From Candidatus Bathyarchaeota archaeon (GTDB lineage: Archaea > Thermoproteota > Bathyarchaeia > 40CM-2-53-6), in the NCBI GenBank assembly GCA_963706285.1, contig CAVPLU010000013.1, forward strand, positions 104,762 to 168,761: a stretch of 64,000 nt of DNA. Reading direction: 5' to 3'. This document shows, piece after piece, positions 13,245 through 20,715 of the stretch. A program made the translations under genes and the position numbers. A model generated the notes under the pieces. That model ran no database searches. It was not told the DNA's origin and saw only the letters and a program-made list of their open reading frames with translations. Numbering within the stretch: position 1 is the first letter of the stretch; each line of letters opens with the position of its first letter.

Positions 13245-13371
13245 GGGGTTGGCAGCTGTCCAAGTTTCGCGTGGCCTTGCGGAACACACTACTGCCTGAA
13301 TCGCCTGGGAGATTCACTTCCGTGTTCGGAATGGGAACGGGTCCTAGCTCCCAGCTATGGCCGCCAGCTCC
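13245..13371 (-). rRNA. rrf: 5S ribosomal RNA
   Basis: GGCGGCCATAGC...ACCCGTTCCCATTCCGAACACGGAAGTGAA...CTGCC with pairing termini. Confidence 0.95.
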
Positions 13372-13393
13372 GATAAGGAGCTTCGCCGACGCA

Positions 13394-13401
13394 TAATTAA
13401 A
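13394..13401 (-). promoter_or_regulatory. TATA box of the 5S rRNA gene
   Basis: TTTAATTA about 23 nt upstream of the 5S 5' end. Confidence 0.6.
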
Positions 13402-13802
13402 CATTGAGGGAGGGTTTTGCGTGACAACTTTCTTCGTCTATTTGGAGTTCGACGTTTCGCCTGATAACGTGTTTTTGTGGCATCGACCGGAATCCGTGCT
13501 TCAAGTCGTGAGTCCGCTAGACGACGAGAGGTTGGGCGTTGTAAAGAAAACAGAAATGGTGGCCCGGGGGAAACCTTACGGCTCCATCTAATATCCACTT
13601 AATGACTTCTCTGACATCTTCTTCAAGGCTCGCATTTAGTAACTCTTTCCTTGGCATTTCCAAGAAGCCATCACACATAGCCGTCTTCCGTTCTTCCTCG
13701 TAACCCATTCAGTCCTAGACTGCGGAGCTAAGACACCTAAGAATATTATCGGAACTGCAAAGATTCTTATGAGAATACTTTCTTGCTCCAAACTTATATT
13801 AT

Positions 13803-15053
13803 GTGAATACCGGACTTGCGGCAATAACTCAAGCTGGTTACGAGATGGGTTTTCCAGGAGCAACGAAAAACCAAACGACAGGCGTCGCACGCACCACATC
13901 CCAAAAACCACGATCCTTCCTGTTCACCTCCGAGAGTGTCACGGAGGGTCATCCTGACAAAGTCGCGGACCAAATCTCCGATGCGATCCTAGATGACATC
14001 ATCTCCCAGGATCCAAAAGCGAGGGTAGACATTGAGACCCTAATAATGAAGGGCACCGTCATAGTTACGGGTCAGGTCACCACATCCGCCTATTCGCACA
14101 TTCCTCGCATCATTCGAGGCGTCCTGCGAGATATTGGGTTCTATGATGCGAAGGTTGGTATCGACTGGGAGGCTTGCGGAGTCCTCGTCTCAATGGAAGA
14201 GCAATCGCCAGACATCGCGATGGGAGTCAATCGGGAAGATATGGGTGCAGGAGATCAGGGCATGGTCTTCGGTCATGCAACAAACGAAACCCCAGAACTA
14301 ATGCCCCTCCCAATAACCCTCGCACACAAGTTGGTTAGAAGGCTAGCGGATGTAAGAAAGCAAGGAATCCTCAAATACCTTCGACCCGACGGCAAATCAC
14401 AGGTGACGATCGAGTACCAAAATGGCACACCCAAGAGAGTGGAAGCCATTGTAATCGCAGCTCAACACGATGAAAACGTCTCAAGGGAGGAAATGAGAAA
14501 AGACATTATCGAGAAAGTGATCAAGCCCGTTATCCCGTCAGAAATGCTCGACGAGAAAACTAAGTTCTTCATCAACGAAACTGGAAGGTTCACTGTCGGC
14601 GGTACACTTGCCGACACAGGTCTTACTGGCAGAAAGATAATTGTCGACACTTATGGGGGAGTTGGAAGCCATGGCGGAGGCTGCTTCTCTGGAAAAGATC
14701 CCACGAAAGTCGACAGATCAGGCAGCTACATGGCCAGATACATCGCGAAGAATATAGTGGCCGCAGGACTCGCCGACAGATGTGACGTTCAGATCGCCTA
14801 CGCTATCGGTGTGTCGAAACCCGTCTCAGTGATGGTCTACACGTACGGCACAGGAAAAGTGCCTGATGAGAAGATTACGGAAGCGGTACTGAAAGTATTC
14901 GACATGAGGCCAAAGGCAATAATCGAACAATTGAAGCTTCTCAAACCCATCTACCGAAAAACGGCCGTTTATGGCCATTTCGGACGGGATGATCCAGACT
15001 TCACGTGGGAGAGGACGGATCGAATAGACGAACTCAGAAAACTCTGCGACTGA
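13803..15053 (+). CDS. metK: S-adenosylmethionine synthetase, bacterial/eukaryotic type
   Basis: [58 protein letters not shown]. Start may be ATG 13845. Confidence 0.97.
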
Positions 15054-15615
15054 CATATCCCCACCGAAATCAAGATATATTTTCTGCGGGCATCGCCTGA
15101 GCAAGCAGCGAGGGCACCGCATTACTGATCTGTTGGGACTTCAGTGCAAGCGGTCCTGAGAACCTGTATGTGTCACGAAAAGAATGCAGTCGTGCAGCTT
15201 CTCGCGTTGTGAAGAATCTTGCGTGATCACTATCAGGCAAACATACATCAAGCTATCATTCTGCATGTGCACAAGTAGTGTGCTATCCCACTGCTGTTCC
15301 TTGGACGTCCCGATCCTATCTCATGTGAAATACACTCTTACTGAATTGCGGTGCTCCAAAGTCAGCTGCATTGAGCATACTGGAATTCTCTAGTTCCCTC
15401 AAACCCTCCAAATTTGGCTGACGATTTTGCCGTTCTGAAAGAGCCAATACCCGGGGAAATTCTCCATGACGAAGAATTTCGGCCTTGCTTCCTTCATAAC
15501 TAACATCATCAAACGATGCATTTACCGATAGAATTTCTTCGATTGCAGCGGAAAAGTGCAACGCCAGGCGATTATGCGTGAAGAACAGCAAGCGCATCAG
15601 CGCAAAATAGTAAGT

Positions 15616-15836
15616 TGGTGGGGCCGAAGGGATTGTCATGGCGTGCCGCCATTTTGAACCCTCGACTTCCGCCGTTTTTCTTCGTCTACGGGTTTCTCCC
15701 GCGCTCCGGAAGATCGTCATCCCACATGGTCAGCAAACCCGTTGCATGCCAAAGGCTTCTGGAGCCCTTAACGGGGGTTGTCCTGTCGTCATCCCTGGCT
15801 AGATTCCGCCGAACCTTGATCATCGCCTACGGCCCC
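15616..15836 (-). tRNA. tRNA-Trp(CCA) with five introns
   Basis: Removing 15804-15826, 15768-15784, 15694-15758, 15667-15685 and 15633-15652 gives a 77-nt cloverleaf GGGGCCGTAGTCTAGCCAGGGATGACGACGGGCTCCAGACCCGTAGGTCGAGGGTTCAAATCCCTTCGGCCCCACCA. Confidence 0.92.
15694..15758 (-). ncRNA. Box C/D guide in tRNA-Trp 37/38 intron
   Basis: ACGGGTTT-G-CTGA is complementary to AAACCCGT of the precursor (N+5 rule points to C39). ATGACGA box followed by CTTCCGGAGC, a near-complement of GCTCCAGAAG. Confidence 0.75.
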
Positions 15837-16037
15837 ACTGGACGACGACGCTCTGGCCCCACCGAGCTAGACTCGCACGCGAACAACATATTTAATGTTT
15901 CACACAGAGCCGCGTTCTTGCGGCAATCCAACTCTAGACGCCCGACAAGAAAAGCCATCGACCTTCGATGACTGCCTTGTGAAGAACAGGCTCGTAATCA
16001 GTTAGTTGCGACCGAGGGCCTCAGTCAAAGCGTAGAC

Positions 16038-16598
16038 CTATACGGAGAAGACTCTCAACAAGTCTGCTTTCGTGATTATTCCCGCTACCTGCCCTCTCTT
16101 CACTACCACAACTGCCGAATGGTACTGTAAGAGAGTCGAAATCAGAGACAGCGGCGCCTTCTCGTCAATCTGAGGGAAAGCCTCAGCCATCACCTTAGAG
16201 ACAGGCATACTTGAAAGTTCTCGCGGGCTAATCCCTGATATGAGTCGATCCATGATCACTTTCTCTGCGATGCTTCCGACAATATTTCGTCCACCAAAAA
16301 CTGGCAGTTGAGAGAATCCGCTTTCCTTCATTATCGCTGCCGCTCTTGAGATAGAATCGTTCTCATCTACTCCAACAACCTTCGATTGCAGGAGATCCCT
16401 CGCATGCGGTTCCTTTTCCCTCTGCATCTTCTCCAACGTATCAAAGATGGCTTTCGTCTTGAGATAGGATGGCTCAGTCTTTCCGGCCTCTATTTTCGCG
16501 ATCATTGATTGGCTCACGCCGGCAAGCCGTGCAAGATGCTTCTGACTCAGCCCGACGATGCGTCTTCGCTTTGAGATCTCCTCAAGCCTTGGGAGCAT
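16038..16598 (-). CDS. XRE-HTH plus CBS-pair transcriptional regulator
   Basis: LARLAGVSQSMIAKIEAG; GFSQLPV; GIITKADLL. Confidence 0.92.
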   Translation of the reverse strand: MLPRLEEISKRRRIVGLSQKHLARLAGVSQSMIAKIEAGKTEPSYLKTKAIFDTLEKMQREKEPHARDLLQSKVVGVDENDSISRAAAIMKESGFSQLPVFGGRNIVGSIAEKVIMDRLISGISPRELSSMPVSKVMAEAFPQIDEKAPLSLISTLLQYHSAVVVVKRGQVAGIITKADLLRVFSV

Positions 16599-16691
16599 GG
16601 ACTCATCCGCCCTCGCAATATTCCTTCAGGAATATGTGGATCAGAACTCTATTAATAGACGCTCTGGGTGTTGTGACCGCGAGGTTTCAGA

Positions 16692-16884
16692 ATGGCGAAC
16701 ATATCCGGCGGCGTGCTCAATCAGACTCCTGTGCAAGATCAACCCATTGAGATATGCGAGAGAAAGGGGTTTGGCTATCCTGAAAGAAGTCTCCAAAAGC
16801 GTTCAAGAGCTCGCCGCTGCCGAACTCTCAAACATCAACAAATTCAGCGAGGATCTTGCCTACGGGCGCATCCCAGTCTGCTGA
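16692..16884 (+). pseudogene. mat: Internally deleted relic of archaeal-type SAM synthetase
   Basis: After GAGGT: MANISGGVLNQTPVQDQPIEICERKGFGYP (cf. archaeal MAT ERKGxGHPD), joined out of frame to LKEVSKSVQELAAAELSNINKFSEDLAYGRIPVC* (MAT-like C-terminus). Confidence 0.8.
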
Positions 16885-16980
16885 GACATAGCCGCTCACT
16901 TCCCAACATGTAGTGCCTGTTTCTCTACCCTGAGCCGGCCACCGCGCTGAATCCCAGCTTGTGAGGAGCTTCAGACAGGA

Positions 16981-18050
16981 TTGCTTTCAAGCCTGAAAGA
17001 AGAGGCTACATCAGCTTTCAGGAAAGTCGTAACAGCGCTCGTTCTGATTCTTTTGGCCTCCTACTTGATCTCGATGATCCTTGGCCCAATCCTCTTCTAC
17101 ACATCACGCGAGGGACTTGATGCTGCATCCAACCTGATCACTAAGCTCCCACTAAGCCTGTTCATGATTGCTGACTTCTCGATTCCTATGGGAACCTACG
17201 TGGGCATATTCTTCTTCATGATTTGGATGCTCTTCGCTGCCGCATTTGTTTTGGCCTGGATTGATGCTCCGAGTTTCCCCATCTCGATCAAGAAAGTCAC
17301 CCAACGAGTCAACGTAATCGGTTCAAACTACCTCATTGTTCTACCACAAGTGTCCACCATTGTGCTCGTCGCAATTGTGGTGCTTCAAGCGTTCCAGGAA
17401 TCCGCAGGCGTCCAGACAGGCAGCATCTCTTTCGAGAATCCAGTGATCGGTTTCCTGTCTGTCTCTTATGCTCCATTAGTGGAAGAGCTCAGCTACAGGA
17501 TAACAACCCTGGGTCTTCTAGATGGGCTGTATCTTGTATGGAGGACCCGGCACCAAGAACAGTACCAAGGCATCAAGGGTGCCGTCTACCTTCTAGCAGG
17601 TACAATGTGGAAACCGGACGGACCAAAGAGACTGTTAGGATTCAAGACAATTCGAGACAACGGCTTGAAAGGAATCTCGCGGATCGAGTGGCTCATTCTG
17701 ATTGCGACGTCAGGAGCTTTTGGAGCTGCTCACTATCTATACGGGGGCGGATGGGAGATCGGCAAGGTTTCCACTGCGATGATATCGGGACTTGCGTTGG
17801 GCTACGTCTATCTACGCTATGGTGCATATGCTCCCATCTTGCTTCATTGGTACTTCAACTACTATTTTGGAACCTTTGATCTCGCTTCACAACTGAACAT
17901 GCCCGAGCGCTGACCTGCTTGCTCTTGGTATAGAATTCTTGAATCTTGGCGGCGGAATCATCCTTGCATCAGGTTTGATTGTATCTTCCGTCGCCAGACT
18001 CTGGTCTGCCACGCGGCACAGGACCTAGATTCGAAGAAGAACGCCAATGA
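16981..18050 (+). CDS. CPBP (Abi/CAAX-like) intramembrane metalloprotease
   Basis: APLVEELSYR, FGAAH, HWYFN. ORF ends 17913; a hydrophobic reading continues in another frame to about 18050. Confidence 0.8.
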
Positions 18051-18256
18051 CCTTCCAAATATTCACGATTCGAACCCTGAAAGCCTACCATCGCAGGCGC
18101 CGGAGTGTATATCACCGCCAAGTTCATGTGCATTTGTAGGCTTTGCAGCAGACGGAACGATCCTATCAAGAGTGTATCTGCGGGAGAATCCTTGGCATGA
18201 AAACTGATACAAGAGCGATAAAACTCGATACTGAGAGAAACGCCGGACATGATGAG

Positions 18257-20715
18257 ATGAGGCTTCCTCCTAGATATGAGCAGTCCACGCTTGAGGCGTC
18301 ATGGCAGAAGAACTGGGAGCAGACTGGTATCTATCACTATGACGCGAGCGACCGTTCGAGACCAACCTACTCGATCGACACGCCTCCACCTTACCCAAGC
18401 GGGGAATTTCATATGGGAAACGCTCTCAACTGGTGCTATTTCGACTTCGTTGCCCGCTACAAACGAATGCGCGGATACAACGTCCATTTCCCTCAGGGGT
18501 GGGATTGCCATGGTCTTCCGACGGAGGTTAGGGCCGAACGCACCTTCAACATCAAGAAACGAGACATATCGGTTGACAAATTCCGCGAGATTTGTGTGAA
18601 ACTGACCACCGAGTATATCGAGAAAATGAAAACCGCGATGCAGTCTATGGGATATTCAATCGACTGGAACCTTGAATACCGAACCATGGATCCCGAATAC
18701 TATAAGCTGACGCAACTTTCGTTTCTACAACTCCTCAAACGTGGACTCCTCTACAGAGGAGAACATCCAGTGAACTGGTGCCCAAGGTGTGAGACGGCAA
18801 TCGCGGAGGCAGAGGTTGAATATGTCAGAAAGCAAAGGTACCCTCCTCGACATTCCTCTTCTCCACACAAAAGGGCGACTTAGTCGTCGCAACCTCACGC
18901 CCAGAGTTCATTCCTGCCTGTGTGGCATTGGCGGTGAACCCGACCGACACCCGTTACGCGGGATATGTTGGAAACGAAGCCGTGGTGCCTCTTGTGGATC
19001 GCAGGATTCCCATCCTGAAGGATGAGCTCGTTGACGTTAGTTTCGGCAGTGGCGTCGTGATGATATGTACGTTTGGCGATAAGACCGATGTCCGCTGGCA
19101 ACACAAATATGCCCTTCCAGTTGTGAAACTCCTGGACGCGCAAGGGCGGTTAACGCAAGAAGCGGGAAAATATGCAGGACTCAAGATCCAAGAGGCACGG
19201 AAGGCAATCGTCGAGGACCTAAAGAATGCTTCAAAGATAGGTGGATCAAAACCAATTGAACGCGAGATAGGCACCTGCTGGAGATGCCACACTCCAGTCG
19301 AGATCCTGTCAGCTCCACAGTGGTTCATGAAGACCAAAGATATGACGAACGAGATAGTCGAATGGACCAACAAAGTCACTTGGGTGCCAGATTTCTCCAA
19401 GAACAGGATGATAGAGTGGGCAAAGTCTCTCGACTGGGACTGGGTAATTTCTAGGCAGAGACTGTTCGGAACCCCGATACCAGTTTGGTACTGTCGCAAG
19501 TGTGAGCAAATATTCGCTGGAAAAGAGGAATGGCTGCCCGTCGACCCACGCTCCCAGAAACCACCGGCAGGATCCTGCCCACACTGTGGATCAACCGAGT
19601 TCATCGGTGACCAAGATGTTATGGACACTTGGATGGACTCATCAATCACATGCGCCGTCCACGCTGGGTGGCCAGCAAAGGTTGATGAATTTCAGAGACT
19701 ATTTCCCGCAGACCTCCAACCCAATGGTCTGGACATCATACGGACATGGGATTACTATCTGATGGCAAGACACCTTGCCCTATTTGGACAGGCACCGTAC
19801 AAGACTGTCCTCGTAAACGGTATGGTTCGTGGCGCCGACGGCAGAATGATGCACAAATCGTACGGCAACTACGTAGAAGTCACAGAGGCGATCATGAAGT
19901 ATGGAGCAGACTCCGTCAGGCAATGGGCAGCGGCGGGGGGATCCACGGGCTACGACATCCCTTACAGATGGGCAGACGTTGAGTACGGCCGCAAGTTCCT
20001 GACAAAACTATGGAATGCTGCTCGGCTAATACTCTCTTCGCTCCAAGACTACGACTCCGCCCTCGCAGCTCCGAAGCTGGACTTGCTCGACAGATGGCTG
20101 TTAAGTAAACTCAACAACCTTATCAAGACCTCCACGGCCGCTTTTGAGAACTTCCAATTCAGCGTCGCCACAGAATCTACGAGAAACTTCATTTGGCATG
20201 ATCTCTGTGACCAATATCTGGAAGCAGTGAAATACAGGCTATATGCCGAGCATTCCCCAGAGAGCGAAAACCGAAGAGCCGCTCAGTACACCCTATTCCA
20301 GACTCTGGAAGTTGTTCTGAGACTGCTCACCCCTATCTGCCCTCACGTCACGGACGCTCTTTATCATGAGCTCTGCCATGACCGGCCAAACGTTAGAAGC
20401 ATCCACTCGGATGCCTGGCCCCTTGCAAATGATGAGCTCATTGATCCGGAATCCGAAAGAAATGGATCGATCATTGTTCGAATACTCTCAGAAGTCCGTC
20501 GCTTGAAGTCAGAGAAACGACTCTCAATGAAGGCCCCCATCAAGAGATTAACAGTCGAATCAACAGAAGAAGTGATGTGCGTACTCCGCGAACATGTAGA
20601 CGCCATTTGTCAGATAGCCGTTGTCGAACAGGTTGAGATCGTTCCCATCAAACGGCCAATGGATGATTTGCCCCCACAGAAGGACAACGACATCCGGCTC
20701 TCCGTACAATTCTAG
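18257..20715 (+). CDS. valS: Valine--tRNA ligase (two +1 shifts near 18827 and 18875)
   Basis: IDTPPP, HMGN, GWDCHGLP, DWVISRQR, MMHKS across the split ORFs. Confidence 0.95.

Follow-up and report, generated by a model that had tools for sequence, protein, structure and literature searches.

A transferred bacterial-type metK has very probably displaced the archaeal S-adenosylmethionine synthetase gene in a Candidatus Bathyarchaeota genome

S-adenosylmethionine (SAM) synthetase is essential, and the type of enzyme is commonly taken as a stable marker, with MAT in archaea and MetK in bacteria and eukaryotes. In xenologous (non-orthologous) displacement, a foreign isofunctional gene arrives, coexists with the native gene and the native gene is then lost, which leaves a patchy and near-exclusive distribution of the two forms. 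Integrative elements are known that use the 3' ends of tRNA genes in archaea as insertion sites, and some pairs of CBS domains bind SAM. The subject of the present analysis is a 64-kb stretch of contig C13 (104762-168761) of G000, a Candidatus Bathyarchaeota genome placed in genus g1. This whole stretch is called the window below, and positions are given in its own coordinates. It carries an intact bacterial-type metK gene together with a 193-nt relic of the archaeal mat gene, and the possible replacement of the latter by the former is considered here.

Archaeal MAT is treated as the archaeal enzyme in the available text of PMC8727953, and the divergent archaeal MAT family (PF01941) also appears in the accessible part of PMC3853416. 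A text search of PMC8727953 returned no occurrence of 'Bathyarchaeota', 'horizontal' or 'bacterial-like'. The relic in the window belongs to this family at its two ends, and full members of the family occupy the same slot in relatives, but only 193 of about 1209 nt are left. In eukaryotes, MAT and MATX show a punctate, mostly mutually exclusive distribution for which differential loss or lateral spread is discussed in the available portion of PMC3923989. As in that case, as far as it is described there, two divergent forms of SAM synthetase are distributed here in a mostly exclusive manner. MAT and MATX are eukaryotic paralogues, whereas here PF01941 and MetK proteins are found within one archaeal class and transfer is backed by synonymous sites and synteny. 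The G000 case is like xenologous displacement in the patchy, near-exclusive distribution of MetK and MAT across 401 genomes. It is unlike the general case in that several stages are visible at once in relatives, and in that the donor appears to be a sister genus and not a distant organism. No paper on MAT/MetK replacement in Bathyarchaeia was found in a literature search outside which subscription journals and supplementary files fell. The case is well supported as a new, unusually well-resolved instance of a known evolutionary process within a class-wide pattern.

The metK gene (13803-15053, plus strand) is an open reading frame (ORF) of 416 aa without stops, and its description in the first-pass annotation as an intact bacterial-type gene agrees with all profile searches. 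Three Pfam domains are present in order and nearly over their whole profiles (PF00438 at residues 39-136, PF02772 at 147-263 and PF02773 at 265-404, with E-values from 2e-38 to 6.6e-68), and the protein scored 577.6 bits against TIGR01034 (cut-off 309.4), covering profile positions 1-376 of 377. The closest solved relative is 7r3b, aligned over residues 39-412 with an E-value of 2.6e-148. The conserved active-site stretches of MetK, namely GHPDK, GAGDQG and the glycine-rich loop GGGxFSGKD, are identical to those of 7r3b, save that the loop reads GGGCFSGKD instead of GGGAFSGKD. A TATA-like box, TTATATTA, was read from the sequence at 13794-13801 (plus strand) and may act as the metK promoter element, with a transcription start predicted near 13822-13828. 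Since the box directly adjoins the GTG at 13803, and since a length of 402 aa is listed for many close relatives, the real start is probably the ATG at 13845, which would give a product of 402 aa.

The relic of mat (16692-16884, plus strand) consists of the first 92 nt and the last 106 nt of the gene, fused at CCTGA (16779-16783). In a pairwise alignment with the 1209-nt mat gene of G007, relic positions 1-92 correspond to mat positions 1-92 and relic positions 88-193 to mat positions 1104-1209, which agrees with the earlier description of the relic as the N-terminal and C-terminal ends of archaeal MAT. Pairwise local alignment was used, and a MAFFT multiple alignment misplaced the 3' part against full genes. 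The two halves overlap by the 5 nt CCTGA, and G007 carries CCAGA and CCTGA at the two corresponding sites. The 1016 nt deleted are no multiple of 3, so that the 3' part is out of frame. The first-pass annotation had placed an out-of-frame fusion near 16780 and had ascribed a deletion of about 1 kb to microhomology. The junction, the extent of the loss and the 5-nt overlap were found as claimed; the frame is less secure, given possible assembly indels, and we infer, without holding it as firmly as the deletion itself, that the CCTGA microhomology may have mediated the event. Two smaller details of that annotation were borne out: a Shine-Dalgarno-like (SD-like) GAGGT is kept 7 nt upstream of the relic ATG, and Tyr stands at the position of the GHPD His, the relic reading GFGYPE where G007 has GIGHPD and G003 GKGHPD, with loss of the GHPD motif (GYPE).

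The N-terminal frame of the relic matched PF01941 at positions 3-31 of 395 (E 5.7e-4) with 19.3 bits, which lies under the curated 27 bits because the match is so short. When the MAT protein of G007 was searched by tblastn against the whole of G000, the two relic pieces alone were recovered (E 1.5e-8 and 3.9e-8), all other matches having E-values of at least 1. The relic occurs once in the genome, and no PF01941 match at E of 0.001 or below was obtained in a genome-wide scan of G000, which is 89.2% complete. A second intact mat gene was thus found neither by the profile nor by tblastn. With mat reduced to this relic, MetK would now supply all SAM in G000.

The position of the relic is informative as well. 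In G003, G006 and G007, which belong to the same genus, the gene order is DUF1512, 5S rRNA, tRNA-Trp, a YchF-like GTPase, a gene for a helix-turn-helix and CBS domain protein (HTH-CBS) on the minus strand, a divergent mat of 403 aa, a CPBP/Rce1-like membrane protease and valyl-tRNA synthetase (ValRS). The relic occupies the exact slot of the intact mat of these three genomes, between the HTH-CBS and CPBP genes. The window retains the g1 order except that mat is a relic, the YchF-like gene is gone and 2.24 kb are inserted between the 5S and tRNA-Trp genes. Nucleotide identity of the locus to these genomes is 73-75% in an alignment from the HTH-CBS gene through the 5' part of mat, and 74-78% in its 3' part. 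The relic also lies within a 73-codon ORF (16692-16913) which keeps its open frame, a TATA box, an upstream palindrome and the SD-like GAGGT, and which might therefore be a new small gene or a regulatory leader under selection instead of a decaying relic. Against this, the second half of the ORF is the out-of-frame 3' end of mat, no family match extends past the MAT N-terminus and the whole region is deleted in the genome G004, so that a selected function for the ORF is hardly credible.

The distribution of the two enzymes was followed in two sets of genomes. Among 41 close relatives including G000, PF01941 was found in 31 and PF02773 in seven, and none had both. The MetK holders of this set are G000 and G004 from genus g1 and all five genomes of genus g4, while the other g1 genomes carry mat in seven of nine cases and metK in none. 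In the wider set of 401 Bathyarchaeia genomes, PF02773 was detected in 103 and PF01941 in 271. Comparison of the two profile tables gave 97 genomes with MetK only, 265 with MAT only, six with both and 33 with neither; many of these genomes are incomplete, and the last figure is no evidence of absence. This near-exclusive distribution suggests that MetK and MAT are interchangeable in this host.

The six genomes with both genes are G212, G093, G101, G108, G119 and G354, of which G108 is a single-contig genome. Such genomes matter because a path of acquisition followed by loss requires them. G119 (family f27) has an intact MetK as well as a mat relic of its own (contig C278, about 2143-2734 in contig coordinates), which matches PF01941 at positions 2-95, with one TGA, and at positions 311-395, about 215 middle residues being gone. 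This relic is independent of that in G000. Fragments of MetK in G231 and G101 were also considered as possible MetK relics and were rejected, as the pieces are cut by contig ends. In the g4 genomes G019, G023 and G335, a divergent metK lies between the HTH-CBS and CPBP genes, that is, in the slot of mat.

A phylogenetic tree of MetK was built with 123 rows, eight candidate loci that had been examined being left out. Sixty Bathyarchaeia MetKs form one clade with a support of 100 in the Shimodaira-Hasegawa-like approximate likelihood ratio test (SH-aLRT). Within it G000 and G004 group together (99) as sister to G335 of genus g4 (99), nested within g4 (96). A more careful tree of 29 rows gave supports of 100/99, 100/99 and 96/95. 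A clade of g4 MetKs alone was rejected in the approximately unbiased (AU) test, with a log-likelihood lower by 34.6 and a p-AU of 0.0039. The tree of six concatenated flanking proteins conflicts with this, as it separates g1 from g4 with support of 100/100. The path from G000 to g4 is 1.6 for the flanking proteins and 0.13-0.16 for MetK, and that from G000 to G004 is 0.35 and 0.037-0.043, respectively. From the nesting of MetK within g4 and from the long flanking as opposed to short MetK paths, the immediate donor of metK would be a g4-like archaeon and not a bacterium, the bacterial origin being older. The title of the earlier annotation, in which a bacterial-type metK displaced the archaeal enzyme, needs to be refined to this extent: the displacement is supported, and the immediate source appears to be another genus of Bathyarchaeia.

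A direct transfer from a bacterium into G000 would account for a protein of the bacterial/eukaryotic MetK family whose nearest bacterial sequences, from genome bins of Desulfurellales, Thermodesulfovibrio, Acidoferrales and Syntrophorhabdaceae, are 60-65% identical. It is at odds with the position of G000 deep in the 60-row Bathyarchaeia clade and with the closest public MetK proteins, which are archaeal (97, 96, 94, 91 and 90% identical, with G335 at 87%). The upstream palindrome and TATA box of the G000 metK are moreover common to the G335 locus, and the GC content of the inserted island, 0.45-0.52, does not differ from its surroundings. Taken together, a direct bacterial source is most improbable. 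The nearest named MetK loci are likewise held by Bathyarchaeia genome bins. For the older bacterial origin, the nearest sampled relatives are Syntrophorhabdaceae/Syntrophaceae, with weak support. One further genome, G330 (family f17), has two MetK matches, and its copy on contig C2 groups with Chloroflexota (Anaerolineae), outside the Bathyarchaeia clade; this copy reflects either bin contamination or a separate transfer.

The age of the transfer can be judged from G004, which is the sister species of G000 on flanking genes (96/96). The metK genes of the two genomes share 96% nucleotide identity (95.8% over 13779-15053) and an identity of 0.91 at 199 fourfold sites. In the seven syntenic flanking genes, nucleotide identity is 69-79% and fourfold-site identity 0.22-0.46. 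Near-identity of the metK copies begins at 13779, in the TATA region, and extends to the stop codon, breaking off sharply at either end. In G004, metK is inverted and lies between tRNA-Trp and a 32-codon stump of the HTH-CBS gene, and no mat remnant was found in that locus. In G000 the upstream match to G335 extends 16 bases further than in G004, and this extension includes the palindrome, which makes G004 an unlikely donor of the G000 gene. Since the fourfold sites contrast so strongly, the sites and orientations of metK differ and mat was lost by different deletions, the two species would have taken up the same metK allele after their divergence, and the transfer would be younger than the split between G000 and G004.

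The alternative is vertical inheritance, in which the ancestor of g1 and g4, or of G000 and G004, held both metK and mat and differential loss followed with no recent transfer. Both-gene genomes such as G108, G093, G354 and G212 do exist, G000 and G004 are sister species, and MetK is in general slow-evolving, all of which would suit this scenario. It does not fit the nesting of the G000 and G004 proteins in g4 beside G335 with the rejection of a g4-only clade, the fourfold contrast between metK and its seven neighbours, the different sites and orientations with similarity ending at the stop codon, or the g1 genomes other than these two, where mat prevails and metK is absent. Vertical descent is accordingly given little weight. 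The earlier proposal of a recent replacement after horizontal gain is in line with the slot of the relic, the lack of a second mat in the genome searches, the distribution, the tree conflict and the fourfold-site difference.

A recent xenologous displacement, in which a transferred metK replaced mat as the gene for an essential enzyme in G000, is thus very likely the best explanation. Starting from the observed gene identities, synteny, deletion boundaries, genome distribution, tree incongruence and synonymous-site difference, the following course of events can be proposed. The ancestor of g1 would have made SAM by archaeal MAT, with the gene located between the divergent HTH-CBS gene and the CPBP gene. 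A bacterial-type metK would have entered the Bathyarchaeia much earlier and, in g4, would already have stood in the slot of mat. From a relative of G335 within g4, a copy may then have moved to the lineage of G000 with its own TATA box and upstream palindrome. It would have arrived after the split from G004, within the 2.24-kb insertion at the 3' end of tRNA-Trp, together with the remains of a C5 DNA methylase gene. The presence of two synthetases could have made mat dispensable, and a deletion of 1016 nt between copies of CC(T/A)GA would have destroyed it. G004 presumably obtained a near-identical metK at another site and in the opposite orientation, and would have lost mat fully by a different deletion.

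Several points weigh against this displacement. MetK evolves slowly and protein distances by themselves would overstate recency, for which reason the case depends mainly on the difference at fourfold sites. The g4 group submitted to the AU test was chosen after the first tree had been seen. The microhomology is just 5 nt long and was deduced from relatives rather than from the true ancestor. The island that carries metK is without an integrase, and its 12-nt direct repeat, described below, is not beyond chance. The assembly may also carry indel errors, which leaves the junction frame and the 'debris' state of the methylase uncertain. ValRS is broken in the window into two frames (18143-18883 and 18922-20715, with the break at 18826-18853), and the C-terminal part of CPBP shifts to another frame from about 17903, while both are single continuous ORFs in G004 and G007. 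These frameshifts are probably assembly indel errors and not true pseudogenes, and because they are without counterpart in relatives, claims on the frame at the relic junction and on the decayed methylase look insecure. The loss of 1 kb of unique sequence differs in kind from such errors and is more secure than any single-base statement on frame. G000 is a metagenome bin of 2.13 Mb in 21 contigs, and with 89.2% completeness and 7.5% contamination a mat gene may conceivably have stayed unassembled. Finally, four wetland runs gave short contigs of which none runs across 16692-16884, and the deletion rests on one assembly. The public sequencing runs found contain at most 0.31 of the sampled words of the window, and the result of the wetland-run contigs weighs neither for nor against the deletion.

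A rival reading takes the relic for an assembly artefact, with a full-length mat present, the gap being a collapse or the consensus of a minority strain, and metK a mere addition. The probable indel errors in ValRS and CPBP, the contamination of the bin and the failure to obtain a spanning read from the runs examined speak in its favour. An overlap of 5 nt is, however, too short to make an assembler collapse unique sequence of 1 kb, the relic has no second copy in the genome, and the Tyr in place of the conserved GHPD His is what relaxed constraint would lead one to expect. In G004, mat was lost independently and in full, a relic of the same kind is present in G119, and 97 of the 103 MetK holders among the 401 genomes are without MAT. 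An artefact is for these reasons considered quite unlikely, and displacement of mat by metK remains the preferred reading.

The island with metK (13373-15612, 2.24 kb) is absent from same-genus relatives, where the 5S and tRNA-Trp genes lie about 80-160 nt apart. Its left border is the 5S rRNA gene (13247-13368, minus strand; Rfam RF00001, 80.6 bits, E 1.6e-15), and its right border is a probable tRNA-Trp gene with introns (about 15613-15836, minus strand), which extends from GGGGCCGTAG to CGGCCCCACCA with the anticodon loop CTCCAGA. The earlier placement of metK between the 5S gene and the 3' end of tRNA-Trp therefore holds. In blastn comparisons with G003, G006 and G007, alignment of the window stopped at 13372-13405 and resumed at 15613-15616, the interval giving no match, and a public contig (run X3) joins 13372 directly to 15615, its shorter side measuring just 27 nt. 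ARAGORN and Rfam, the latter at two thresholds, made no tRNA-Trp call at 15613-15836, and the identity of the gene comes from alignment and sequence reading. This region shares 86-91% nucleotide identity with four same-genus genomes, compared with about 66-75% for the coding flanks. A six-genome alignment is conserved from GGGGCCGTAG to CGGCCCCACCA and unrelated directly past CCA, and because it breaks there, the island begins exactly at the 3' end of tRNA-Trp. The probable tRNA-Trp is interrupted by several insertions bearing box C/D-like motifs (GATGACGA ... CTGA), a pattern reminiscent of the intron-encoded guide RNA of archaeal tRNA-Trp.

Convergent with metK, fragments of a C5 cytosine DNA methylase gene are found at 15070-15521 (minus strand), which may be a pseudogene or may have been damaged by assembly indels. 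The piece at 15070-15240 matched PF00145 positions 273-318 (31.7 bits, E 1.4e-7) and that at 15399-15521 matched positions 97-126 weakly (E 0.018); in the genome scan the methylase scored 29.1 bits with one internal TAG. The pieces do not share a reading frame, stops occur in them, and nothing of the N-terminal third is present. No tblastx match was found between these fragments and the methylase gene of G000 on contig C14. The flanks of metK within the island (13369-13802 and 15054-15612) gave no tblastx match in the loci of g4, G004 or g1 and, by blastn against their own genome, self matches only. The ORFs tested at 13344-13708 and 15070-15521 gave no recombinase match at E-values up to 0.1.

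A perfect 12-nt direct repeat, TTTCTTCGTCTA, occurs at 13429-13440 and, within tRNA-Trp, at 15677-15688, 2248 nt apart, where about 0.2 such pairs are expected by chance; it could be a remnant of an attachment (att) site or a chance occurrence. In a 341-nt contig of run X5, at about 90% similarity, 15503 is connected to 13417 by 16 additional letters. This could be the junction of a circular or tandem metK element of 2.09 kb and, coming from a single short metagenome contig, is to be taken as a lead only. In G004, a 381-aa ORF (contig C55, 768-1913, minus strand) adjoins the 3' end of tRNA-Trp and weakly resembles the archaeal tyrosine recombinase XerA (E 2e-6; 27.6 bits, where the cut-off is 220). 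G335 has 3.5 kb between its 5S gene and tRNA-Trp, and this end of the tRNA gene may serve as a hot spot of integration. The YchF-like GTPase gene, for its part, is missing at 15837-16037 of the window, where 200 nt remain, and in G004, while G335 has about 1.3 kb there; the only YchF-like match in G000 is a paralogue with 43% identity (C13:19273-20463).

MetK is listed among auxiliary genes of archaeal proviruses in the available part of a preprint (bioRxiv 10.1101/2025.11.27.691053). Among viral contigs the best match to the MetK of the window was 56% identical, and no viral vehicle was found; among metagenome contigs the best was 83% identical, and no closer donor context was found. The G000 island is like tRNA-targeting integrative elements in starting past the CCA of tRNA-Trp, the same end at which G004 has its weak XerA-type ORF. 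It is unlike them in being without an integrase or a convincing att repeat, and viral MetK is as distant as stated. An integrative element may have carried the metK island, and such a mobile vehicle is a lead and not a finding.

The two synthetase loci share a palindrome of the consensus ATTCY-N4-RGAAT, which in each case precedes the TATA box by 16-17 nt. At metK, the operator-like ATTCTTATGAGAAT (13763-13776) lies 17 nt upstream of the TATA-like box; in the intergenic region between the HTH-CBS gene and mat, ATTCCTTCAGGAAT (16620-16633) precedes the TATA-like TATTAATA (16650-16657) by 16 nt and is 22 nt away from the start codon of the HTH-CBS gene. The pattern ATTCYNNNNRGAAT occurs twice in the 64-kb window where 0.32 are expected, and seven of 100 shuffles reach two; it is the placement of the two matches that carries the evidence on the palindrome. 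The half-sites of the palindrome at 16620 are invariant in G000, G003, G004 and G007, and 10 of 12 mat loci, which come from several families of the order, have the palindrome at the equivalent intergenic place. It is also present upstream of metK in 9 of the 12 metK loci of family f1, genus g4, that were examined. Outside family f1 it is upstream of metK in 2 of 36 MetK loci, with the HTH-CBS gene adjacent in 1 of 36. In the 2.13 Mb of G000 there are 23 copies of ATTCY-N4-RGAAT, about twice the chance expectation, and the HTH-CBS protein, if it binds this sequence, may have further targets in the genome.

The HTH-CBS gene (16038-16598, minus strand) is intact, is divergent from the mat slot and encodes 186 aa with an HTH_3 domain (PF01381, E 3.1e-9) and two CBS domains (PF00571, E 6.6e-15, in two stretches). 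Over residues 1-185 the protein shares 78-80% amino acid identity with its counterparts in G003, G006 and G007. On the other side of the mat slot, the CPBP/Rce1-like membrane protease gene (16981-17913, plus strand) was assigned by PF02517 (E 5.7e-8) and by synteny. The placement of the palindrome suggests control of the synthetase genes by the HTH-CBS protein, which could regulate the gene of either type, the imported metK having kept its operator. The protein is on this basis a candidate SAM-responsive regulator. Its solved relatives are CBS proteins, e.g. 9zni, 5awe and MJ1225 (3kh5). It is like CBS ligand sensors in combining a CBS pair with HTH_3, and its gene is linked to that of a SAM synthetase, whether MetK or MAT, across a conserved palindrome. 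It is unlike them in that a profile search found no characterised family that fits the protein as a whole, and binding of SAM and of the palindrome is putative. A literature search, with subscription journals and supplementary files outside its range, found no paper on such a regulator of archaeal MAT. As a tentative idea that we consider possible though doubtful, the HTH-CBS protein would sense SAM and bind ATTCY-N4-RGAAT as part of a portable module, and the metK cassette would spread with its operator, maybe by way of an element at tRNA-Trp that carries a C5 methylase. If this were true, an operator-bearing metK could plug into the resident regulator anywhere, which would explain the repeated replacement of mat both in its slot, as in g4, and out of it, as in G000.

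About a quarter of the 401 sampled Bathyarchaeia genomes have the bacterial-type enzyme, and MAT type is unreliable as a lineage marker within this class. Close relatives show every stage of the exchange: coexistence of the two genes in one genome, mat relics left by two different deletions, one case of full loss and a precise replacement within the slot. The locus in G000 offers a dated and mechanistically readable example of the replacement of an essential gene, and the HTH-CBS protein with its palindrome is a candidate system, open to testing, for the control of archaeal transcription in response to SAM.

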